From NCBI GenBank assembly GCA_963827575.1, contig CAWHCG010000048.1, positions 197,018 to 261,017 of the forward strand: a stretch of 64,000 nt of DNA. Reading direction: 5' to 3'. This document shows, one piece after another, positions 3,821 through 56,425 of the stretch. A program made the translations under genes and the position numbers. Below the pieces are notes generated by a model. It was not told the DNA's origin. It saw only the letters and a list, made by a program, of their open reading frames with translations, and did no database searches. Each line of letters begins with the position of its first letter. Within the stretch, counting starts at the first letter, position 1. Source of the DNA: an uncultured beta proteobacterium (lineage in GTDB: Bacteria; Pseudomonadota; Gammaproteobacteria; Burkholderiales; SHXO01).

Positions 3821-4663
3821 TCACTCCTTGATGAGCCAGTTCACTCGCCACTGGCCCTCGCGTTCGGGCGACAAGACCTGCCACAGCCAGGCGAGCACAG
3901 CGCGCGCTTCTTCCTCGAAGCCGAACGGCGGATTGACCACCAGCATGCCGCTGCCGCGCAGACTCACCAACCAGGTTTCAGGGAACACGGAGAGCTCCAG
4001 CTCGAGGACCTTGCGAATCCCGGTGGCCAGGACGCCACGTATGAAGCCGTGCATCACGACTGGCGCCATCAGCGGGTACCAGAGTGCAAACACTCCGGTG
4101 GCGAAACGGCGGTGCGACAGACTCAAGGCCTGCGTCAGCCGCTCGAACTCCCGAGCGCGGTCGAAGGAGGAATCCACCAGGACCAGCCCGCGCCGCTCGC
4201 GCGGCGGCAGATGCGCCTTCAGCGCCTGGTAGCCGTCCGCATGCTCTACCACAACCCTGCGATCCTCGGCGAACAGCGCGCCGAGCTGTTTGCAGTCCTC
4301 CAGGTTGAGCTCGGTGAGGACAATGCGATCGGCGTCGCGCAACAGCCGCTGGGCGATGCGCGGCGAGCCTGGATAGCGCCGCAGGCGCCCGTCCCGATTG
4401 TCCGCACGCACGGCTTCCAGATACGGAGCCAGCAGCGCCGGCGCGTCGTTGCGCTCCCAGACGCGCTCGATGCCCTCGCGGTACTCGGCGAGCTTCTGGG
4501 CCCACGGGTGGCCGAGATCGTACAGGCCCGTGCCGGCATGCGTGTCGAGGTAGCAGAACGGCTTGTCCTTGCGAGCGAGCAGGAGCAGGAGGCGCGTGAG
4601 CAGCGCATGCTTGAACACGTCGGCGAAGTTGCCGGCGTGGAAGAGATGGCGGTAGGCGAGCAC
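3821..4663 (-). CDS. rlmJ: 23S rRNA (adenine2030-N6)-methyltransferase RlmJ
   Basis: GTG 4663 gives (M)LAYRHLFHAGNFADVFKHALL.., the characteristic RlmJ/YhiR N-terminus, at a length of ~280 aa. The longer ORF to 4705 runs into a repeat arm. Confidence 0.85.
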   Translation of the reverse strand: MLAYRHLFHAGNFADVFKHALLTRLLLLLARKDKPFCYLDTHAGTGLYDLGHPWAQKLAEYREGIERVWERNDAPALLAPYLEAVRADNRDGRLRRYPGSPRIAQRLLRDADRIVLTELNLEDCKQLGALFAEDRRVVVEHADGYQALKAHLPPRERRGLVLVDSSFDRAREFERLTQALSLSHRRFATGVFALWYPLMAPVVMHGFIRGVLATGIRKVLELELSVFPETWLVSLRGSGMLVVNPPFGFEEEARAVLAWLWQVLSPEREGQWRVNWLIKE

Positions 4664-4670
4664 GAAAATG

Positions 4671-4763
4671 CAGGCGCGAGGCGCGAGGCGCCGGAGGCCC
4701 GTCACGAGGCCAGGCTCGATCTAGGGTTCGCATCTCGCGCCTCGCGCCTCGCGCCTCGCGCCT
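4671..4763. repeat. composite hairpin element, heptamer class (AGGCGCG / CGCGCCT units)
   Basis: The left arm is caggcgcgaggcgcgaggcgccggagg.. (4671-4710). A ~22 nt loop follows, then a right arm tctcgcg cctcgcg cctcgcg cctcgcg cct (4733-4763). It sits between the rlmJ start and the mazG-like stop and overlaps the TAG by 2 nt. Confidence 0.8.
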
Positions 4764-5118
4764 AGAGCTTGTCATACTTCGTCGCCCTGCCCTTCGCCTT
4801 CTCCACCGGGTACTTCTGGCGGTTGAGGTCGAGCTTCTTCCCGGCCACTGCGATCGGATCGACATCGAGCTTGTCGCACAGGCGCAGCAGGAACAGGAGC
4901 ACGTCGGCAATCTCCAGCTCCACTTCAGCCCGGGTTGCCGGCGCAAGATCGCTGCTCTGCTCCGGCGTGAGCCATTGGAAGTGCTCGACCAGCTCGCCGG
5001 CCTCCGCCACCAGCGCCATGGCGAGGTTCTTCGGCGTGTGGAACTGGTCCCAGTCGCGCTCGGCAACGAAGGCGCGCAGCTGTGCGCGCAGCGCTTCCAG
5101 CCGATCGGCGGGGTTCAT
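4762..5118 (-). CDS. MazG-type nucleotide pyrophosphohydrolase (small all-alpha NTP-PPase)
   Basis: 118 aa: ERDWDQFHTPKNLAMALVAEAGELVEHFQW..EVELEIADVLLFLLRLCDKLDVD, the typical MazG-like signature. Confidence 0.8.
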   Translation of the reverse strand: MNPADRLEALRAQLRAFVAERDWDQFHTPKNLAMALVAEAGELVEHFQWLTPEQSSDLAPATRAEVELEIADVLLFLLRLCDKLDVDPIAVAGKKLDLNRQKYPVEKAKGRATKYDKL

Positions 5119-9019: not shown

Positions 9020-9036
9020 ACCCACTGCAAGGAATT

Positions 9037-9319
9037 CACAGGATTAACAGGATCTCGTAGGATTGACAGGATTCTCCCCCAACATGCGAGGCCGAGGGTT
9101 CCTGCAATGTTGGCCGATCACACCCTGACACCGCCGCGCCGGCTGTATGTGCCCCTGCGTCAAGGACGGGCTGATCTGCGCACACGCTCGCGTCTGGCTA
9201 ATCTGATCTGCTCCTTCCCCCTCGCGAGGGGGAAGGCTGGGATGGGGGTGCGCGCAGAAGACTTTACGACACTCGCCGCACCTCGCAGTGGATCCTGTTA
9301 ATCCTGCGAAATCCTGATA
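9037..9319. repeat. composite hairpin element with CAGGATT-type units and a REP-like core
   Basis: Left arm cacaggattaacaggatctcgtaggattgacaggattc (9037-9074). Core hairpin CCTTCCCCC tcgcga GGGGGAAGG (9214-9236). Right arm gatcctgttaatcctgcgaaatcctgata (9291-9319). A 16-nt perfect match links caggattaacaggatc to gatcctgttaatcctg. Confidence 0.8.
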
Positions 9320-14638: not shown

Positions 14639-14691
14639 GGTTTCCTTGGCGTCCTTGGCGTCCTCATCGGGTCGGGCCTTGGCGGTGAGAG
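14639..14691. repeat. solitary right arm of a composite hairpin element (CCTTGGCGT units)
   Basis: ggtttccttggcgtccttggcgtcctcatcgggtcgggccttggcggtgagagc, with the usual inner GTTTCCT and outer GGCGGTGAGAG ends. No matching left arm was found between the paaI stop and this arm. Confidence 0.7.
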
Positions 14692-17788: not shown

Positions 17789-18542
17789 ATGTCAACGACT
17801 CACTTCGACTACGTTATCCGTCTTGCGGACAGCCCGCTGATCCTCGGCCAGCGCTTGTCCGAATGGTGCGGGCACGGCCCGGTCCTGGAAGAGGATCTCG
17901 CGCTGGCCAATGTCGCGCTCGATCTGATCGGCCAGGCCCGGCTGCTGCTCGCCCATGCCGGCGGGCTCGAGGGCAGAGGGCACGACGAGGATCAGCTCGC
18001 CTTCCTGCGCGCGGAGTCCAGACTATCGCAACTTCACGTTGGTGGAACTGCCCAACGGCGACTTCGGCACGACGGTGGTACGCAACCTCCTGTTCAGCGC
18101 CTACCAGTCGCATTTGTGGGAAGACCTGCAACGGTCCGCCGACCACGCGCTTGCGGCGATCGCGGGCAAGAGCATCAAGGAGGTGCGGTACCATCTGCGC
18201 CACGCGGCCGACTGGACGATACGCCTTGGCGATGGTACCGAGGAGTCGCACGCGCGCGTACAATCCGCGCTCGATCAACTATGGCCGTACACCGCCGAGT
18301 TCTTCGCGCCCGATGCGGTGGACCAGGCGGCGGCAGCCGACGGCTACGGCGTGGCGGTCGCGCCCCTTCAACCGCGCTGGGACGCAACGGTGGGGCCGGT
18401 CCTGGAGGAGGCGACGCTGCGTGTCCCGGAGCGCACGCCGTTTCGCTCCCATGGCAAGCATGGTGTGCACAGCGAGCACATGGGGCATCTCCTGACCGAG
18501 ATGCAGTATATGCAGCGCACCTATCCAGCTTCGCAATGGTGA
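17789..18542 (+). pseudogene. paaC: 1,2-phenylacetyl-CoA epoxidase subunit C, one frame break
   Basis: ORF 17789 gives YVIRLADSPLILGQRLSEWCGHGPVLEEDLALANVALDLIGQAR..LAFLRAE. The frame of ORF 17955 continues (P)DYRNFTLVELPNGDF..VRYHLRHAADW. A 1-nt insertion lies at ~18017-18021. Confidence 0.8.
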
Positions 18543-22136: not shown

Positions 22137-22372
22137 CAGGCGCGAGGCACGAGGCTCGAGGCGCGAGAGGTGCGGCCTTGACAGCGCATTCGGAAGGGCC
22201 GCCGAGTGCCCCCTCTCCCCTTGCGGGAGAGGGCTGGGTGAGGGGCCGACACATCGGAACCGCTACCAGCAGGCTCGAGATCGGCCCCGCGCGTCGCCAT
22301 CGCGCGCGCACGTCGCGCCTCGCGCCTCGCGCCTCGCGCTTGCTCGCGCCTCGCGCCTCGCGCCTCGCGCCT
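22137..22372. repeat. composite hairpin element, heptamer class (AGGCGCG / CCTCGCG) with REP-like core
   Basis: Left arm caggcgcgaggcacgaggctcgaggcgcgagagg (22137-22172). Core CCCTCTCCC cttgc GGGAGAGGG (22211-22233). The right arm has ~8 CCTCGCG units (22311-22372). It fills the convergent gap to within 3-4 nt of both stop codons. Confidence 0.85.
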
Positions 22373-30194: not shown

Positions 30195-31130
30195 TCACGC
30201 CTCCCGCCTCACAAAGCGCTGCACCGCGCCGCGCGATGCCCTGCGGGAACGCCACCACCATCAGGATGATCACCGCGCCCAGTATCAGCCGCCAGTAGTC
30301 GGTGCTGCGCATCACCTCCGTTTGCAAGGCGTGATAGGCGGCAGCGCCCACGACCGGACCGCTCAGGGTCTGCAGCCCTCCCAGCAGCACCATGACCAGC
30401 GCATCGACCGACTGCGGTATGGCAAGCACCGTGGGGAAGACATTGCCCTGGTGATACGCGTGGAGCGCACCCGCCAGCGCGGCCGCCGCACCCGCCAGCA
30501 CGAACGCCGCCCATTGCTGGCGGCGCACGTCGATGCCGATCGCCTCCGAGCGCAGCGGCGAGTCCCTGCCCGCCCGCAACGCGTAACCGAAGGGCGAGAA
30601 GATCACCCGCCGCAGCAGGATCAGGCTCGCTGCCGACCACCGCCAGCGTGAAATAGTAGTAGGCCGTCGTCGAAGCCGAGCCAGGCGGGCGGCCATACCC
30701 CGAGGATACCGTTGTCGCCGCCGGTCCAGCCCGCTGTGAAAGCTACCGACCAGACGATCTGCGCGAAGGCGAGCGTGAGCATGGCCAGATAGACGCCGGA
30801 CAGACGGATGCAGAACCAGCCGAACAGGACTGCAACCGCCGCGGCGGCGAGCGGTGCGGCCGCCAGGTTGACCGGCATGGGCGAGGCCGCATGTTTGACC
30901 AGCAGCGCGCAGGCATAGGCGCCGATGCCGAAGTAGACGGCGTGGCCGAAGGACACGAGCCCGCCGATGCTCATGATGAAATGCAGGCTGGCGGCGAACA
31001 GCGCGAGGATCATGATCTCGACGCTCACGAGCTGCGCGTACTCGCCGGCGAGAACCGGCAGGAGCAGAAGAATCGCCAGCAGCAGCATTGCAGCGGCCAG
31101 CACCGGCCGGCTCGCAGGACAGATGGGCAA
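30195..31130 (-). pseudogene. branched-chain-type ABC permease, LivM-like, about three frame breaks
   Basis: N-terminal part in ORF 30621..31130 and middle part in the frame of ORF 29752..30696 (SPFGYALRAGRDSPLRSEAIGIDV..). Two 1-nt shifts lie at ~30640-30680. A further one at ~30228-30234 restores the typical end ..FPQGIAGAVQRFVRREA* (TGA 30195). Confidence 0.7.
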
Positions 31131-31131
31131 C

Positions 31132-32042
31132 TCAGCCGATCTGCGGCGCGACGCGCGGGCGCGCCTCCGGCTTGCCCAGCAGCCCGTAGGGCCGGATCAC
31201 CAGCACCACCGCCATGACCAGGAAGGTCAGCACCAGGGTGAGCTGCGGGAAGATGAGGATGCCGAAGGCGGACAGCAGGCCAACCAGCAGCGCTGCCAGG
31301 AAGGCGCCGGTCACGCTGCCCATCCCGCCAATCACCACCACCACGAAGGCCTCGGCGATGACGTGAATGTCCATCTGCAGGTTCACCGCTTCCTTGGGGA
31401 TCTGCAGCGCACCGCCCAGTCCGGCTAGGAACGAGCCGAGGAACAGCACGCTGGTGAACAGCCACCGCTCGTTTACCCCCAGCGCGCCGGCCATCTCCCG
31501 ATCCTGGGTGGCGGCGCGCACCAGCACGCCCCAGCGCGTGCGGTGGAACAGCAGCCACAGGACGCCCAGCACGATGGGCCGAGCACGATCAGGAACAGGT
31601 GATATTGCGGGAAGCGCTCGCCGAGGATCTCCACGGTTGCCCTCAGACCCGGGGCGCGCGGGGCGAACAGGTCCTCCCGGCCCCAGATGGCGAGCGCGGC
31701 ATCCTGCACCACCAGCACCACCCCGAAGGTGGCCAGCAGCTGGAACAGCTCGGGCGCACGGTAGATCCGTCGCAGCAGCAGGATCTCCATCGCCACCCCG
31801 ACGACGCCCACTGCCGCAGCGGCAAGCACGATCCCGGTCCAGAAGCCCACCGGTGCGCCGAACCGCTCCATCAGGAACCCGCTCGCGCTGTAGGCCGCGT
31901 AGGCACCCAGCATGTAGAACGACCCATGGGCGAAGTTCACGATGCGGGTCACACCGAAGATGATCGACAGACCCGATGCGACCAGGAAGAGGGTCGCGGC
32001 GTGGGACAGGCCGGTGAGGAACTGGATGAGGAAGACGGTCAC
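31132..32042 (-). pseudogene. branched-chain-type ABC permease, LivH-like, one frame break
   Basis: From GTG 32042: MTVFLIQFLTGLSHAATLFLVASGLSIIFGVTRIVNFAHGSFYMLGAY... The frame then changes at the GGG run 31576-31578 into ..IVLGVLWLLFHRTRWGVLVRAATQDREMAGALGVN.. Confidence 0.8.
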
Positions 32043-32050
32043 TTATGCGC

Positions 32051-32249
32051 AAGGCGGGAGGCGCCTGCCCGTGAGGCGGTGAGGCGGGAGGCGAGGCGTC
32101 CCCCAACACTGCTGGTGAGGCGGGAGGCGGGAGGCGGGAGGCGTCCCCCTCACCCCGCCTCTCTGAACGGGGAGAGGGAGGATGCGGGTTATCTATCACC
32201 TAGAACGCCTCACTCGCTCACGCCTCACGCCTCTACGCCTCACGCGCCT
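32051..32249. repeat. composite hairpin element, heptamer class (AGGCGGG/AGGCGTG vs CCTCACG) with REP-like core
   Basis: Two left blocks (32051-32104, 32115-32149) of ggcggga/gtgaggc units. Core ccccctcaccccgcctctctgaacggggagagggagg (~32145-32181). Right arm gcctcactcgctcacgcctcacgcctctacgcctcacgcgcct (32207-32249), abutting the SBP stop. Confidence 0.85.
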
Positions 32250-33440
32250 ACTTCATCGCCTCCACCGGCCGCTTCTTCCTCACCACGCATCCGCTCGGCA
32301 TGTAGTCCTTGCCGTCGGCGTAGCGCCAGTCCACCATGACGCCCTTGTTGCCCTTCAGGTCGAGCTTGCCGACAAAGGCCCAACGTGGATTGCTGGTCGA
32401 TTGCGCGAAAGGTGATGGGGCCGAACACGGTGTCGATCGTCAGGCCGCGCAAGGCCTTGATCAGCTTCTCGGGGTCGGTGGAGCCCGCTTTCCTGAGGGC
32501 CTCGGCGATCGCCATGAAGGTGGTGTAGCCCACCACCGAACCCAGACGCGGTGTGTCGTTGAAGCGTTTCTCGTAGGCCTGCACGAACTTCTGGTGCACC
32601 GGGGTCTTGATCTGTTCCCAGGGATAGCCGGTGACGATCCAGCCCACCGGGGTTTCGTCCTTGAGCGGGTCGAGGTACTCCGGCTCGCCCGACAGCATGC
32701 TGACCACCGCGCGATCCTCGAACAAGCCGCGCAAGTTGCCCTCGCGCACGAACTTGGTCAAGTCGGCGCCGAACGTGACATTGAAGATCGCATCGGGCCT
32801 GGCCGCGGCCAGCGCCTGCACCGTCGCACCCGCCTCCAGCTTGCCCAGCGCCGGCCACTGCTCCTCGACGAACTCGACGTCCGGCCGCTTCGCCTTCAGC
32901 AGGGCCTTGAAGCTCGCCACCGCCGATTGTCCGTACTCGTAGTTGGGCGCCACCGTCGCCCAGCGTTTGGCCGGGAGCTTGGCCGCCTCCTCCGCCAGCA
33001 TGGCCGACTGCATATAGGTGCTCGGACGCAGCCGGAAGGTGTAGCGGTTGCCCTTCTCCCACACCAGCGCATCGGTGAGCGGCTCGGCCGCGACGAACAC
33101 GACCTTGTTGCGCAGGGCGATGTCGCTGACCGCAAGCCCGACGTTGGACAGAAAGGTCCCGGCGAGCAGGTCGACCTTCTGGCTCGCGAGCAGCTCGCTG
33201 GCATGCCGGGTCGCATCGTCCGGCTTGCCGCCGTCATCGCGCGAGATCACTTCCAGCCTGCGCCCCAGCACCCCGCCCGCGGCGTTCACCTCCTCCACCG
33301 CCAGCTCCCAGCCGTTGCGGTAGGGGATCGTGAACGCAGGCACGGTGGAGTAGCTGCTGATCTCGCCGATGCGGATCGGGCTGCTGCGCATGCGCGGCTG
33401 TGAGATCAGCACCAGCGCGCCGAGTGCAATCGCTCGTCAT
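32248..33440 (-). pseudogene. Liv-type (PBP type 1) ABC substrate-binding protein, frame broken near both ends
   Basis: The body is in ORF 32240..33412 (PIRIGEISSYSTVPAF..NGWELAVEEVNAAGGVLGRRLEV..). The C-terminus continues after a 1-nt shift at ~32377-32382 as AFVGKLDLKGNKGVMVDWRYADGKDYMP..VEAMK* (TAG 32248). The likely ATG 33440 (MTS..) is also one frame off the IALGALVLI signal segment. Confidence 0.7.
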
Positions 33441-33641: not shown

Positions 33642-35355
33642 TTACGCTTTGGGCGCATCGCGCAGCTCGCGCCGCAGGATCTTGCCGACCGGGCTCTTGG
33701 GCAGGGAGTTACGGAACTCGACGTGACGCGGGACCTTGTAACCGGTGAGGTTCTCGCGGCAGTGACGGATCAGCGCCTCGGCGGTAAGCGCAGGGTCTTT
33801 GCGCACCACGAACAGCTTCACGGCCTCCCCGGTGTTCTCGTCCGCCACGCCGATCGCGCAAGCCTCCAGCACGCCCGGGTGCATGGCGACCACGTCCTCG
33901 ATCTCGTTGGGGTACACGTTGAAGCCGGACACCAGGATCATGTCCTTCACCCGGTCCACGATCTTGAGATAGCCCTCCGGGGTGATCAGGCCCAGGTCGC
34001 CGGTGGCGAGCCAGCCGTCGGAGCGCAGGACCTTCGCGGTCTCGTCGGGCCGCTGCCAGTAACCGGCCATGACCTGCGGTCCGCGCACGAACACCTGACC
34101 CACAGCGCCCTGCGGCAGCGCGCGCTCCGCCTCGTCGCGGATCTGCACCTCGGTGCCGGGCAGGGGCAGGCCGGTGGTGCCGGTGTGCTCTTCGATGTCC
34201 AGCCGGTTGATGGAGACAGCGCCGGAGGTCTCGGTGAGTCCGTAGCCCTCGGAGAGCACGCGCCCGGTGATCTCCTTCCAGCGCTTGGCCACCGCGAGCT
34301 GCACCGGCGCGCCGCCGCCGCCCGCCATGCGCAGGTTGCTGAAGTCGACCTTGGCGAAAGCTTCGTTGTGGATGAGCGCGTTGAACAGCGTATTGACGCC
34401 GACGAAGAACGTGAACCGGTTGGCGCCGAGGGTCTTGACCAGGTTGGGGATATCCCGCGGGTTGGCGATCAGGATCTGCAAGCCTCCGCCGCGCACGAAC
34501 ATCATGCAGTTCAGCACCAGCGCCAGGATGTGATAGAACGGCAGCGGCGCGACCGCGATTTCCTGGCCGGCTCGCACGGTGTTCCCGGTATAAGCGAGGA
34601 TCTGCTCGACATTGGACAGGACGTGCCGGTGCTGCAGTATCGCGCCCTTGGACACCCCGGTGGTGCCGCCGGTGTACTGCAGGAACGCCAGATCCTCGGC
34701 CGCCAGTGGCGGCACGCTCATGCTTGCGCCCGCCCCCCCGGCGAGGGCTTGCGGGAAGCGCACTGCACCCGCGATGCTCCAGGGCTTGACCATCTTCTTG
34801 ACGCGCCGGAACACGAAATTGATCAGCGCCGCCTTTGATCCAGCCCAGCAGGTCCCCGATCGACGCGACTATCACGTGCTTGACGGGCGTGCGCGCGATG
34901 ACCTCCTGAAGTGTGTGCGCCGCACTCTCGAAGATCACGATCCCCGCGGCGCCCGAATCCTTGAGCTGGTGCTCCAACTCCCGAGCGGTGTAGAGTGGAT
35001 TGACGCTGACCACCGCCAGCCCCGCGCGCAGGATCCCATAGACGGCGATCGGATACTGCAGGATGTTGGGCATCATGATCGCCACACGCTCGCCCTTGCG
35101 CAGCCCCAGGCGGGTCTGCAGGTACGCGGCGAAGTCGCGTGACAAGCGATCCAGCTCGCCATAGCTGATCTGGACGCCGAAGCTCTCGAACGCGGGCTGG
35201 TCGCGGTAGCGCTGAACGCTCGCCTCGAGCATCTGCGGGATCGACTCAAACTCCAGCGGACCCAGTTCCGCGGGCGCGCCGGGCGGGTAGCTCTTCAACC
35301 ACGGCTTCGCTTCGCTACCGCTGGTCATCGACTCCATCTGCGTGCTCCCGGCCAT
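33642..35355 (-). pseudogene. long-chain/medium-chain acyl-CoA ligase (FadD-like, AMP-binding), one frame break
   Basis: N-terminal half in ORF 33709..35355 (..PWLKSYPPG..ERVAIMMPNILQYP..). The C-terminal half in ORF 33642..34814 has LQYTGGTTGVSKGA, GYGLTETS, WLATGDLG and KVPRHVEF. The shift lies at ~34826-34834. The ATG 35355 overlaps the upstream stop (TGATG). Confidence 0.8.
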
Positions 35356-36661: not shown

Positions 36662-37558
36662 TCAGCCCCTGGATGCAGGCGGCTGCGAACCACCCCGATC
36701 CGGAACCGGCGCCGTCAATGCTGCCACGCCACCGACCGCCCGCGCGCTTCCGCGCAGACACATCACCGCAGCCGCGATAGTACCTGCATCCAGCAAACGC
36801 TGCGCGTGGGCCGCGCCGGCCGCCAGCGCGCGCTCGATCTGCTCTGTCGACAGGGCGCCAACGTCCACGGTCACGGGGCGTGGCCCCAGGTCGGTGTCGT
36901 CCTTCAGCTCACATGCCGGGCGGCGGATGATCGTCGCGGCGTCGACGTCGACGTCATTGGCGATCATGGTCGCGGCCGCGTCGGCCTCGGCGGCGCTGCG
37001 CGCCAGCACCGTCACGCTGTCGGCGATGCCGAGGCTGAAACTGCGCCCGCGCCAGCCGCTGGTGGCGATGCCCCGCACCGGCTGGTCCGCGGTCACTTCG
37101 AAGGCAGCGTCGAGGCCGAGCGGTTTGCGACCTTGCGATCCGCCCAGCTCGGCGACCAACCCGACGCGGTAGGCCTGACCGGGAGCCAGACACACCGCGA
37201 TGTCGCCCCCGTTGTTCACGTACGCACGACGCACGCCGGCCACGCGAAAAAAGCCGATCATCTCGTCGGCTACCGCGCCCGCCACCGCCGCCATCGGAGT
37301 GATGAACCGCTCGCGGTGCGGCCAGCACGCCGCAACCATGCGCTTCGCGACCGGCTGCCGGACCCCGCCTGCGTCCCGCACCGGCGAGCGCAGCATCCGC
37401 AATTCACCGACCAGCTCAGCCAGGACGCGCTCGAAGCGTTGCCATGCACGTCCGACGGCGAGCTCGACCGCTTCCCGCTCGCCGTCTGCCCCGATGACGA
37501 GATCGATCGGCCCATGCTGGAAATGCCAGCGCCCGTCGGGGAAGCGGGCGCGGCTCGC
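36662..37558 (-). CDS. UPF0280 (ApbE-related) family protein, 5' boundary unresolved (no start codon before the conserved N-terminus)
   Basis: In frame: ..FPDGRWHFQHGPIDLVIGADGEREAV.. (37481-37543) and FITPMAAVAGAVADEM..NNGGDIAV..GIATSGWRGRSFSLGIADSVTVLA. The track ORF starts only at TTG 37402. Upstream the frame runs into the heptamer repeat without ATG/GTG/TTG. Confidence 0.6.
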   Translation of the reverse strand, partial: ASRARFPDGRWHFQHGPIDLVIGADGEREAVELAVGRAWQRFERVLAELVGELRMLRSPVRDAGGVRQPVAKRMVAACWPHRERFITPMAAVAGAVADEMIGFFRVAGVRRAYVNNGGDIAVCLAPGQAYRVGLVAELGGSQGRKPLGLDAAFEVTADQPVRGIATSGWRGRSFSLGIADSVTVLARSAAEADAAATMIANDVDVDAATIIRRPACELKDDTDLGPRPVTVDVGALSTEQIERALAAGAAHAQRLLDAGTIAAAVMCLRGSARAVGGVAALTAPVPDRGGSQPPASRG

Positions 37559-37561
37559 TGC

Positions 37562-37857
37562 CCGTGAGGCGGGAGGCGGGAGGCGGGAGGCGTCCGATCG
37601 CGTGAGGGGAGGCGGGAGGCGGGAGGCGTCCCCCGATACTGCTGCGTGAGCGGGAGGCGGGAGGGGGAGGGTCCCCTCACCCCTGCCCTCTCCCCCGTGA
37701 ACGGGGGAGAGGGAGTATGCTGTTGGGCTGCTTCAGTAACGGATTGACGCCTCACGCCTCACGCACTCGAACGCCTCACGCCTCACGCCTCACGCCTCAC
37801 GCCTCACGCCTCACGCCTCACGCCTCACGCCTCACGCCTCACGCCTCACGCCTCACG
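37562..37857. repeat. composite hairpin element, largest copy: AGGCGGG blocks, REP-like core, GCCTCAC x12 array
   Basis: Left blocks 37562-37670. Core CCCTCTCCCCC gtgaac GGGGGAGAGGG (37686-37713, 11-bp perfect stem). Right arm GCCTCAC x2 (37749-37763) and an uninterrupted x12 run (37773-37857), ending 3 nt from the stop at 37861. Confidence 0.9.
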
Positions 37858-37860
37858 GTT

Positions 37861-39309
37861 TCACCCGACCGGCCAAGGATTGAGCCCATCCCATCCGACC
37901 ACACGTATGCGCTCGCTGTCGACGATCTCGCGGATCGTGCGCACGCGGTCCATATGCCCGCCGAGTGCCCGGTAGTCCGCAAGCTGCAGGGTGAACTCGA
38001 TGGGCGCGACGATGGCCGGGGTAGGCACCCAGCCGAAGGAGTTGTGGGGCATGCGGGTGACATCCACCATCACCGTGATGCCGCCCCCGGGCCAGACATA
38101 CACCGGCGCGCCGCCGCAGGTGACTCTGGTCAGCAGGTCTTTGATGGACCGCGTCAAGCGCACCGGATTCTCGGTCACGCCCGCGCGCAAGCTGCCGCCT
38201 GCGCCGGCCAGGAACAGCACCGTGCACAGAGCCGGCTCGCAGTTCTCGCCGATGCGCTCCACCACCTTGCGTACCGCGGCAGGCATCGGCGCAGGCCGCA
38301 TGCGCAGCTGCTCGTCGAGGATGAAATAAGCCGAATCCTCACCGGTAGTCGAAACCATCAGAATGCGGCCGCCTGCTCGCGCCACTTTGGGGTCGAAGCC
38401 GGTGACGATGGACAGCGGATCGGTGACGTCGGTGCCGCCCCAGCCGGTGCCCGGGTTGGCGACCTGGAAGTAGCGCCCCGGGGTGGACTTGCGCCCCCTG
38501 ATCCTGATCCCGGACGGGGGCATGGCCAGGAAGCGGCCGGCTTGATGCTCGGTGAGCACGCCGGTGATGTGGTCGTCGACCACCACCACCTCGTCGACGT
38601 GCCCGTGCCACTGCTTGGCGAAGATACCGATCGTGGCGGAGCCGCATCCCACCCGCATCCGCTGCTCTTCGACGCCGTTGACCACGGGTGCCTTGCCGGC
38701 CTGGATCACCAGGCTGGCACCACCGTCCACCTGCACCTCGACGGCGCTCTGGTTGCCGAGCTCCATCATCATGTCGCAGGTGACCCGCCCCTCCTTCTTG
38801 CTGCCGCCGGTCAGGTGGTGCACCCCGCCCAGCGACAGCATCTGCGAGCCGTATTCGATGGTGGTGACATGTCCCACAGCCTCGCCCTTGCAGCGCACGC
38901 TCGCCTGCTCCGGCCCGATCCAGCGGTCGGTGTCGATCTTGATCTTGAAGCTGCAGTAGCTGAAGATGCCCTCGGTCACGACCGTGACCATGTCCACGCC
39001 CTGATACTGCGAGCTGACGATGAACGGCGCAGGCTTGTAGTCGGGATACGTAGTACCCGAGCCCACGCCGGAAACGAACACGGGGGCATCGGAAATGGGA
39101 CTGCCGTCCCAGTCCTTCTGCTCCAGGAACCCGGTGACCTCGCCGGACTCGCCCGCCACTTTCTGGAACAGCACCACCGGGTCGACCCGGGTCAGTTTGC
39201 CGCCGAAGTTGCCCCACCGGTCGCAAGCGCCGGTGCGCCCCTCGCTGATCTGGCACAGCACCGGGCAGGCGTCGCAGATCACTTTGCCGGGTGCAGGAAT
39301 CTCGCTCAC
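37861..39309 (-). CDS. 6-hydroxynicotinate reductase-like iron-sulfur protein
   Basis: 482 aa with an N-terminal Cys cluster, ICDACPVLCQISEGRTGACDRWGN. Length and N-terminus match proteins I recall being annotated as 6-hydroxynicotinate reductase. The context includes an enamidase-like gene and a Mo-hydroxylase. Assignment is from memory only. Confidence 0.6.
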   Translation of the reverse strand: MSEIPAPGKVICDACPVLCQISEGRTGACDRWGNFGGKLTRVDPVVLFQKVAGESGEVTGFLEQKDWDGSPISDAPVFVSGVGSGTTYPDYKPAPFIVSSQYQGVDMVTVVTEGIFSYCSFKIKIDTDRWIGPEQASVRCKGEAVGHVTTIEYGSQMLSLGGVHHLTGGSKKEGRVTCDMMMELGNQSAVEVQVDGGASLVIQAGKAPVVNGVEEQRMRVGCGSATIGIFAKQWHGHVDEVVVVDDHITGVLTEHQAGRFLAMPPSGIRIRGRKSTPGRYFQVANPGTGWGGTDVTDPLSIVTGFDPKVARAGGRILMVSTTGEDSAYFILDEQLRMRPAPMPAAVRKVVERIGENCEPALCTVLFLAGAGGSLRAGVTENPVRLTRSIKDLLTRVTCGGAPVYVWPGGGITVMVDVTRMPHNSFGWVPTPAIVAPIEFTLQLADYRALGGHMDRVRTIREIVDSERIRVVGWDGLNPWPVG

Positions 39310-47652: not shown

Positions 47653-47834
47653 ACAACCAAAGGCGCCAAGGCACAGAGACGCCAAGGAGTCATACACGAG
47701 CACCCACAGCGTTGGCGCAGCCTTGTCCTTGGGCTGCCAGCGATGGCTAGCCGGCCCCTGCTGAGCCACCTTTGCGCCTTTGCGTCTTTGCGGCTTTGCG
47801 ATCCTCGCCGGCTCTCTGTGTCCTCTGTGGCTGC
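47653..47834. repeat. degenerate composite hairpin element (CAAAGGCGC units), ATPase-permease gap
   Basis: Left arm acaACCaaaggcgccaaggcacagagacgccaaggag. The right arm is cctttgcgcctttgcgtctttgcggctttgcg plus ctctctgtgtcctctgtgg. The arms match less well than in other copies. Confidence 0.65.
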
Positions 47835-55410: not shown

Positions 55411-55686
55411 TCATCCGCAGAGGATGCCGAGGACCGCAGAGGAGGATCGCTAACCTCAGCGACCACGAAGGTCACGAAGGAACACGAAGAAGGCTCTCTC
55501 GTGCTGGTCGATTTGCGGGCCGCCTTGGTGGCTCTATCTGCCCCCTCTCCCCAGCCCTCTCCCACGAGGGGAGAGGGGCCCGCAGCGGCGTTTCCGCCGT
55601 CACTGTGACCGGGCACCAGTGGAAACTACGGGAGAACCACCGAAACTCCCTCTCCCCTTGTGGGAGAGGGTTGGGGGAGAGGGGGA
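55411..55686. repeat. repeat jumble: two different left arms without partners plus two REP-like hairpins
   Basis: cCGCagaggatgccgaggaccgcagaggagg (55411-55445). gaccacgaaggtcacgaaggaacacgaagaagg (55460-55494). CCCTCTCCC acga GGGGAGAGGG (55555-55577). CCCTCTCCC cttgt GGGAGAGGG (55648-55670). Confidence 0.75.
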
Positions 55687-55699
55687 TGGCGAAGGCTGC

Positions 55700-55984
55700 G
55701 ATCCCGATGTCATCAGGGTCGGCGAGATGCGCGACGCGGAGACCGCCCGCATCGCCATCGAAGCGTCCATGACCGGCCATCTTGTCTTGTCTACGCTGCA
55801 CACCAACTCTTCCGCGGAGACGGCAGCACGGTTGATCGAGCTCGGCATCGACCCGTTCAGCTTGTCCGACGCGCTGCTCGCCATCGTGTCGCAGCGGCTC
55901 GCGCGCAAGCTGTGCAGCCGCTGCCGCAAGGCGTACGCGCCCAAGCCCGAGGAGCTCGACGAGCTGGCCGCCGAGTACTACTAC
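55700..55984 (+). pseudogene. internal fragment (~95 codons) of a GspE/PilB-family secretion ATPase
   Basis: [69 protein letters not shown] covers Walker B/His-box to the tetracysteine start. The Walker A half upstream is absent and the normal C-terminus downstream is not recognisable. Confidence 0.7.
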
Positions 55985-56113
55985 TGCGCGCACCGGCGTC
56001 AGCCCGGGCGGGCCGAGCGCGATCAATTGCTGGCGCAGGACGCAGCTCGCCGTGCGCGGGCTCTGCGCCGTAGCTCTATACTGGGCTGCATCGCGACTCA
56101 CAGCGGAGGCACC

Positions 56114-56425
56114 ATGCTCGTCAAGTTCGACTCCAAAGTCGGCGCGCTCACGATGTTCGGTGACGTTGCCGTCGAGCTGCTCAAGCTCATGGGTCACTCG
56201 GGAACAGTCCCGAGTGCCATCCTCGCGCCGGATATCTCTGCGGCGCTCGAGCGCCTCACGCTCGCTCTCGACCAAGGGGCATCGCTGCCGGCCACGCCGA
56301 CCGACGAGGAGGATCGGCGGGAGGGCCGCAAGCCGGTGTCCCTGCGCCAGCGCGCCTACCCGCTCATCGACCTGCTCGAGCGTGCCGCCAGGAACAACGC
56401 CGACGTGATGTGGGAGCGCGGCTAG
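56114..56425 (+). CDS. DUF1840 domain protein
   Basis: [61 protein letters not shown], as I recall DUF1840. It is in the same frame as the upstream GspE fragment but has its own ATG. Confidence 0.6.

Follow-up and report, generated by a model that had tools for sequence, protein, structure and literature searches.

A palindromic mosaic repeat with complementary heptamer arms in the first codons of a UPF0280 gene from an uncultured Burkholderiales bacterium

The window analysed here, a 64,000-nt stretch of a contig from an uncultured betaproteobacterium of the Burkholderiales (CAWHCG010000048.1), carries on its minus strand a gene for a 482-aa protein followed by a UPF0280 (ApbE-like) gene. 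Where the two genes meet lies a discrete palindromic mosaic repeat of the kind represented by repetitive extragenic palindromic (REP) sequences and bacterial interspersed mosaic elements (BIMEs), and it is situated within the first codons of the UPF0280 gene. The features of the locus, in minus-strand order, are as follows.

37861-39309, minus strand: upstream 482-aa gene with stop codon TGA at 37863-37861 (list of open reading frames, ORFs; orthologs end in NPWPVG and the stop).
37862-37864, minus strand: orphaned native GTG start of UPF0280, overlapping the upstream TGA (GTGA junction).
37562-37858, minus strand: whole palindromic mosaic element, 297 nt (boundaries, in-silico excision, RNA fold, arm complementarity).
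37773-37856, minus strand: purine-rich (R) arm, distal block of 12 perfect GTGAGGC units (repeat search).
37747-37764, minus strand: proximal 2.5 units of the R arm, with a gap at 37765-37772 between them and the main block.
37733-37736, minus strand: position homologous to the internal start of relatives (alignment A1, frame arithmetic, sequence).
37673-37713, minus strand: TM/PIT intrastrand-triplex-type repeat CCCTCTCCCCCGTTCACGGGGGAGAGGGCAGGGGTGAGGGG, with its hairpin part at 37686-37713 (block match to published TM motifs).
37563-37670, minus strand: pyrimidine-rich (Y) arm of GCCTCCC/GCCTCAC units in three blocks (repeat search).
36662-37561, minus strand: body of the UPF0280 gene, beginning at codon 3 (GCA 37561-37559) and ending with the stop codon (NCBIfam NF003322; homologs).
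37396-37402, minus strand: first canonical in-frame starts, TTG 37402 and ATG 37396 (ORF list; gene call P0001).

Read on the gene (minus) strand from 37858 to 37562, the element passes from the purine-rich arm through a TM/PIT-type centre to the pyrimidine-rich arm, and its ends are perfect 9-nt terminal inverted repeats (CCGTGAGGC and GCCTCACGG). The 12-copy heptamer array named in the original prediction, which was made from the sequence alone, is exact, with its end coordinate corrected to 37856: GCCTCAC is repeated 12 times at 37773-37856 (84 nt), giving 10 overlapping 21-mers versus 0 in 100 shuffles. The array reported by Tandem Repeats Finder, 37747-37857 (period 7, 15.4 copies, 94% matches, score 195), is longer because it takes in the 2.5 further units of the proximal block. 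As had been described, the run adjoins the upstream TGA, but the gap is 4 nt and not 3 nt. The perfect REP-like central stem at 37686-37713 can be drawn as 12 bp with a 4-nt loop or as 11 bp with a 6-nt loop, and the left arm that had been seen to join the UPF0280 gene consists of three blocks of GAGGCGG units (plus strand; 37563-37592, 37606-37628 and 37650-37670), each with only three to four uninterrupted units. Both arms belong to one large element; they are 87-91% mutually complementary, and the sense RNA of the element folds at -206.7 kcal/mol versus -157.2 +/- 6.0 kcal/mol for shuffled sequences (z = -8.3). The GTGAGGC arm supplies TGA in all three frames, while the Y arm is without a stop codon in the UPF0280 reading frame.

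The element has not replaced the native UPF0280 start, as had been considered: the GTG survives at 37864-37862, overlapping the upstream TGA, and the insertion lies directly after codon 2, such that GTG AAA adjoins the 5' end of the element. Excision of the 297 nt in silico yields VKAASRARFPDGRWHFQHGPIDL and regains the canonical N-terminus VKAASRARFPDGRW, with the GTG 10 codons before the conserved Asp; most UPF0280 orthologs begin 9-10 codons before the DGRW motif. As assembled, this GTG opens merely GTG AAA CCG TGA, and it is severed from the gene body because the purine arm carries TGA in every frame. The frame up to the element scores 373 bits against NF003322 (cut-off 290) over profile positions 8-281 of 295, and positions 37543-37481 encode the conserved N-terminus FPDGRWHFQHGPIDLVIGADG in the gene frame. 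Reading of the ORFs bore out the earlier statement that no ATG, GTG or TTG stands between the repeat and this N-terminus: the gene frame has an in-frame TGA at 37735-37733 and then none of these codons before TTG 37402, and between the same two points there is also no CTG, ATT, ATC or ATA. Likewise, initiation at 37402 or 37396 would delete conserved sequence as stated, in that the NF003322 match then runs from position 59 of 295 instead of position 8. Judged from its sequence, UPF0280 is start-less as assembled. Unconventional initiation, which had been offered as an explanation, found no supporting signal. A scan of 37300-38000 returned no promoter-like or terminator-like site, by which an intrinsic terminator (GC-rich hairpin plus U tract) was rejected as the identity of the element, and an Rfam 15 scan of the whole window at gathering score returned no match.

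The best UPF0280 matches are metagenome-assembled genomes (MAGs) of Burkholderiales, at 68-84% identity. Comparison of UPF0280 5' ends among these relatives, as the original prediction had advised, gave a graded series from intact overlap to full palindrome. Element-free relatives (loci L001, L202, L074 and L243) keep the GTGA stop/start overlap. One locus (L205) has an array only, with five units amplified from the native GAGAGGC and the frame still open from the GTG. Another (L199, on an error-prone long-read contig) has the full composite element with units lacking TGA, and is open from an upstream ATG. Three more (L002 and L203 with ATG, L204 with TTG) have TGA-containing units together with an in-frame start gained immediately 3' of the purine arm, which occupies one homologous position in all three. 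The composite element is therefore found at the UPF0280 junction of L002, L199, L203 and L204, with a degenerate form in L200. Heptamer copy number ranges from about 3 to 14 units between related lineages, L203 pairs GTGAGGA with TCCTCAC, and the central bodies of the orthologous elements have a mean column identity of 75% (alignment A1).

At the position of the relatives' internal start the window has a CTG (37736-37734), which is out of frame by one base and overlaps the in-frame TGA at 37735-37733; as assembled, the replacement start known from relatives is absent here. The spacing from CTG to hairpin is 41 nt in the window versus 40 nt in L002 and L204. The distances from the hairpin to the conserved Asp codon are 158, 128, 92, 92 and 95 nt, all 2 mod 3 despite differing arm lengths (5/5 lineages), for which the chance probability is about 1-4%. 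Because this frame is kept in all five lineages, relatives would seem to translate the centre together with the pyrimidine arm, as an extension of the N-terminus. Gene calls of further lineages have N-terminal extensions resembling translated repeat-arm or central-repeat sequence (SRLTPH, PLSREGRGE, FTLHSS). To judge by these reading frames, relatives keep UPF0280 expressible either by read-through or by starting at an ATG or TTG acquired past the purine arm. The insertion length is a multiple of 3 in the window, L002 and L199 and not in L203 and L204, and was not used as evidence. Element-bearing and element-free lineages are interspersed on a rough UPF0280 protein tree, so repeated gain, loss, or conversion between copies must have happened.

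A different insertion of 349 nt occupies the junction upstream of UPF0280 in a further locus (L213; Ga0105241_10003047); it has two TM-like hairpins, followed by about three units of about 60-80 nt, and ends in GAGTCGAAG.

The UPF0280 element belongs to a large family spread over this soil-type genome, with at least ten paired repeat-armed palindromes of one plan in the window, at sites near 4672, 16055, 17256, 19052, 20331, 22138, 32071, 33469, 37562 and 39405. The plan consists of 2-4 tandem units of 7-9 nt (up to 14 units at 37562), a centre of about 40-190 nt, and a right arm of complementary units, the unit sequences varying among elements (GAGGCGC, CGCAGAGG, CGCCAAGGA, CGCCAAGA, GTGAGGC). 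In all ten the purine arm is 5' and the pyrimidine arm 3', and in loci from other genomes heptamer-type elements follow the same polarity by 13:0 and nonamer-type elements by 26:1; owing to the palindromic build, the rule is identical on both strands. Co-directional genes flank nine of the ten, five of which occupy successive gaps of the paa operon, and convergent genes flank the other; the copy at 37562-37858 is the only one that is not confined to a gap between genes. A sibling element at 32071-32251 has modules and a 3' end (CCTCACGGGCAG) in common with it, and the module CAGCAGTxTxGGGGGACGCCTC is common to both window copies and missing from the L002 ortholog. The nonamer arm occurs mostly in uncultured soil and groundwater Betaproteobacteria, and the heptamer alone, in four-copy runs, occurs in many phyla. 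The central repeat is known and the overall behaviour is REP/BIME-like; for complementary tandem-repeat arms with strict polarity, and for these arm sequences, no description was found in a searchable literature that is itself incomplete, where searches by concept brought up direct-heptamer systems only.

Repeats of other kinds were also seen. Solo pyrimidine-type arrays at 14643-14664 (TCCTTGGCG, 2.4 copies) and 47769-47800 (CCTTTGCG, four copies) have no recognisable purine partner arm. At 9034-9074 there are four direct repeats of about 9-10 nt (ATTCACAGG, ATTAACAGG, ATTGACAGG) that are unlike the GC-rich elements and could be protein-binding sites. In a Burkholderiales MAG (JBKJMN010000113.1; L121, 6566-6678), five GTTAGGC units adjoin five of GTGAGGC; the former unit fits the core of an integron attC site, GTTRRRY, with the arm polarity reversed. 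An integron attC site (RYYYAAC 5', GTTRRRY 3') was considered for the element and rejected, as its polarity is the reverse and the arms here are multi-copy arrays.

The centre of the UPF0280 element has the three-block pattern of the TM/PIT intrastrand triplex motif catalogued by Holder et al. (2015), who list 23 copies in E. coli (Table 1 of PMC4666352): a pyrimidine block CCCTCTCCC, a loop, a complementary purine block GGGAGAGGG, a 2-nt spacer (NN) and a G-rich block GGGGTGAGGG, all within 37673-37713. The blocks resemble the E. coli copies and their layout is identical, whereas the published motifs stand solo or as inverted pairs and are without complementary tandem-repeat arms (PMC4666352). 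Motifs of this type have been tied to local genome variability, which fits the variable UPF0280 junction, and no stable triplex was found in vivo by Holder et al. (PMC4666352). Further full TM copies in the window lie at 22211-22245, 55541-55577 and 55648-55685, along with one degenerate copy. TM copies from other phyla, collected in a genome-wide scan with the 15-nt pattern ATACTCCCTCTCYCC, have no repeat arms; chance matches predominate in that scan and true TM copies are few. The inverted TM pair at 55541-55685 directly precedes a fragment of a type II/IV secretion ATPase of the T2SSE type (55619-56425, plus strand), which covers only positions 211-320 of 370 of the Pfam T2SSE profile and looks like a remnant gene.

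Among known systems, the closest likeness is to REP/BIME sequences, that is, to high-copy GC-rich mosaic palindromes found in operon gaps or at gene ends near stop codons. The window has GC-rich palindromes in many copies, with at least ten paired elements plus four to five TM copies in 64 kb, intergenic except for the UPF0280 copy. The differences are that the arms here are tandem-repeat arrays of 7-9 nt and not a single REP unit, that a strict purine-5'/pyrimidine-3' polarity applies, and that the UPF0280 copy is inside coding sequence. Alternating-unit clusters with conserved linkers were not found in the window, where elements have a single centre and an inverted TM pair occurs only at 55.5 kb. 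With regard to REPINs and the REP-associated tyrosine transposases (RAYTs), the element ends have no GTAG head and no RAYT link was established, the window ORFs having had no systematic screen. Rickettsia palindromic elements (RPEs) are palindromic repeats inserted in frame in protein genes, and they are paralleled here by a palindrome in an ORF that is apparently translated in relatives (read-through in L199; N-terminal extensions in L002, L203 and L204); the present insertion differs in its location at the extreme 5' end and in having stop codons in this genome. Mycobacterial interspersed repetitive units (MIRUs), 40-100 bp in length, are found at stop/start overlaps in operons, where small in-frame ORFs preserve coupling. 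They share with the present element tandem repeats at stop/start overlaps inside operons, and differ in the absence of palindromic arms, in their far longer units and in their coupling-preserving ORFs. Tandem heptamers at many intergenic sites are likewise known from the TAACTGA arrays of Beggiatoaceae, which lie within a few nt of start codons in a geometry that resembles the pyrimidine arms here (MacGregor, 2015; PMC4679880), from the short tandemly repeated repetitive (STRR) sequences of cyanobacteria, and from the heptanucleotide elements (GGACCGG) between and within genes of Geobacter metallireducens (PMC2700814). However, these arrays are direct and their sequences unrelated; because they have no complementary partner arm, they form no long hairpin.

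The explanation that we favour, and hold to be somewhat better than an even bet, is that a palindrome of the REP/BIME kind has split the UPF0280 start from its body, and that relatives compensate by the routes described above. Slipped-strand mispairing probably lengthens and shortens the arms, since their lengths differ between lineages and 12 units are identical, and these identical units would indicate recent expansion. Complementarity of the arms is probably kept by hairpin-templated (quasi-palindrome) correction. REP hairpins in E. coli affect mRNA stability and ribosomes near the stop codon. By analogy, the element probably folds into a long intercistronic hairpin in the operon transcript, which would block 3' exonucleases, might be cut by RNase III and would stand in the way of ribosomes beside the stop codon; the likely outcome would be that UPF0280 expression is lowered or uncoupled.

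Several points weigh against this explanation. The RNA-level role suggested for the hairpin is carried over from E. coli REP biology. The frame conservation comes from only five lineages, of which one is known from an error-prone assembly, and the patchy presence on the UPF0280 tree is compatible with vertical inheritance plus losses or with repeated same-site insertion. Base-level covariation between the arms did not emerge: in the nonamer family the paired fraction was 0.937 versus 0.931 for shuffled partners, a comparison that carries no information either way because the search had preset one arm's outer units. The element flanks show no target-site duplication, and no transposase was identified, although no systematic search for one was made. 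Finally, three other window genes, otherwise intact, have single-base frameshifts, so an assembly error may account in part for the missing internal start.

The last point leads to the strongest of the alternatives, which is possible though clearly less probable than the favoured explanation and is akin to the missing bases of the original prediction: the element would be real, and a one-base indel in this repeat- and homopolymer-rich stretch would hide a UPF0280 start inside it as in relatives, leaving the gene intact. UPF0280 is thus either truly start-less or hit by a 1-nt assembly error. One-base frameshifts occur elsewhere in the 64 kb in a fadD-like gene (about 34820), in paaC (about 17990) and in a livH-like gene, the window is one base longer between CTG and hairpin than L002 and L204 (41 versus 40 nt), and the frame from GTG 37755 is open across the whole element (ORF 37270-37755), such that one missing base would also make a long ORF. 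However, dropping the extra base yields CTG only and an ATG needs a second change, an indel between hairpin and gene is made less probable by a frame there that matches the relatives', and if errors fell uniformly at about 1 per 20 kb, only about 0.2-1% of stretches of about 40-200 nt would contain one. The three frameshifts themselves imply either about 1 assembly indel per 20 kb or several pseudogenes in the genome. The fadD-like AMP-binding gene (33642-35355, minus strand) belongs to the same operon as UPF0280 and changes frame near 34820, from ...GWIKGG to ALINFVFRRVKKMV. In paaC (17928-18542 and upstream), the change near 17990 is from ...LAFLRAES to DYRNFTLVELPNG, and the Pfam PaaA_PaaC match begins at profile position 89. 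The livH-like permease gene (30621-32042, minus strand), downstream of the sibling element, is shifted near 31200-31470, after ...LFLIVLGP.

A mobile non-autonomous element, comparable to MITEs (miniature inverted-repeat transposable elements) or REPINs, may instead have inserted independently at GTGAGG-like stop/start overlaps in several lineages, a proposal to which roughly one chance in a small handful may be given, slightly below that of a hidden indel. The discrete boundaries with perfect terminal inverted repeats would be expected of such an element, as would the second copy at 32071-32251 with the same modules and 3' end, the module held by both window copies and lacking in the L002 ortholog, and the patchy presence on the UPF0280 tree. 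Opposed to these are the lack of a target-site duplication, the failure to identify a transposase or RAYT (without systematic search), the comparison of L205 with L202, in which the native GAGAGGC is seen to have been amplified in situ at the UPF0280 junction, and the finding that orthologous central bodies are roughly as similar to the sibling copy as to one another. A MITE in the strict sense was rejected: inverted repeats are present, but the flanks, GTGAAA on one side and GCAGCG on the other, share no duplication.

It is unlikely that UPF0280 is a truncated but functional gene translated from ATG 37396 or TTG 37402. The automatic call P0001 (244 aa, from ATG 37396) does score 295.8 bits against the NF003322 cut-off of 290, but such a product is without the first 58 of 295 profile positions, among them DGRWHFQHGPID, which is the family's most conserved motif; furthermore, Met 37396 is not conserved, being Leu in relatives, and the 150 nt upstream form an intact conserved reading frame.

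More doubtful still is the idea that the hairpin holds the stop and restart sites together, so that ribosomes would resume across the stem base and UPF0280 would be made without a conventional start, for which we allow only a slight chance. The native GTG/TGA junction and UPF0280 codon 3 do lie on opposite sides of the stem base. In other genomes the first purine-arm unit often supplies, with its TGA, the upstream stop, and the downstream start often lies 1-12 nt after the last pyrimidine-arm unit without a Shine-Dalgarno sequence; this flanking-gene geometry, which is noisy when taken from ORFs in GC-rich DNA, was drawn from long-ORF cases only, a few with recognisable N-termini. Examples of such stop-to-start arrangements are genes that we take to be gmk, nrdR, dnaJ and lptE-like from their N-terminal sequences alone. 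In the window, the element at 4671-4770 beside an rlmJ-like gene (3821-4720, minus strand; Pfam RsmJ match) is arranged in the same manner, the upstream stop TAG adjoining the purine arm (GAGGCGC units) and the likely GTG start lying 12 nt after the pyrimidine arm with no Shine-Dalgarno motif. The route across the stem might be reinitiation or, at the extreme, a bypass of the gene-60 kind, with take-off at CCG-TGA and an in-frame CCG in the last pyrimidine block (features of the T4 gene 60 bypass are reviewed in PMC5009743). If true, the folded stem could preserve translational coupling across the insertion.

Equally improbable is a contingency (phase-variation) switch in which slippage of 7-nt units turns UPF0280 on and off in the population: a unit length that is not a multiple of 3, 12 identical units that favour slippage, copy numbers that differ among lineages and pyrimidine-arm units that fall within the apparently translated region of relatives would all suit it, but the TGA codons of the 12-copy arm fall in all three frames and no copy number opens it, by which switching through that arm is rejected, while uninterrupted units number only 3-4 in each block of the pyrimidine arm, like elements occupy many unrelated intergenic gaps, the hairpin-to-gene frame is conserved and not variable, and unit slippage alone never yields a start codon.

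The upstream gene of the pair gave no Pfam or NCBIfam match for its 482-aa product, so that the label of 6-hydroxynicotinate reductase-like protein attached to it in the original prediction was not confirmed, and no database record of the exact sequence of this protein was found.

The purine arm stands 5' and the pyrimidine arm 3', and the arms often span from a stop to the next start without a ribosome-binding site between them; the searchable literature yielded no description of this simple rule. For annotation, UPF0280 and probably other genes are mis-called in these uncultured Burkholderiales where elements touch gene ends, being either truncated or given N-terminal extensions that resemble translated repeat. 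The single UPF0280 junction offers a natural series, in which it is intact, has an array only, has a palindrome that is read through, has a palindrome with a new start, or has a palindrome and no start, and this series shows a translationally coupled gene pair coping with a selfish or structural repeat.

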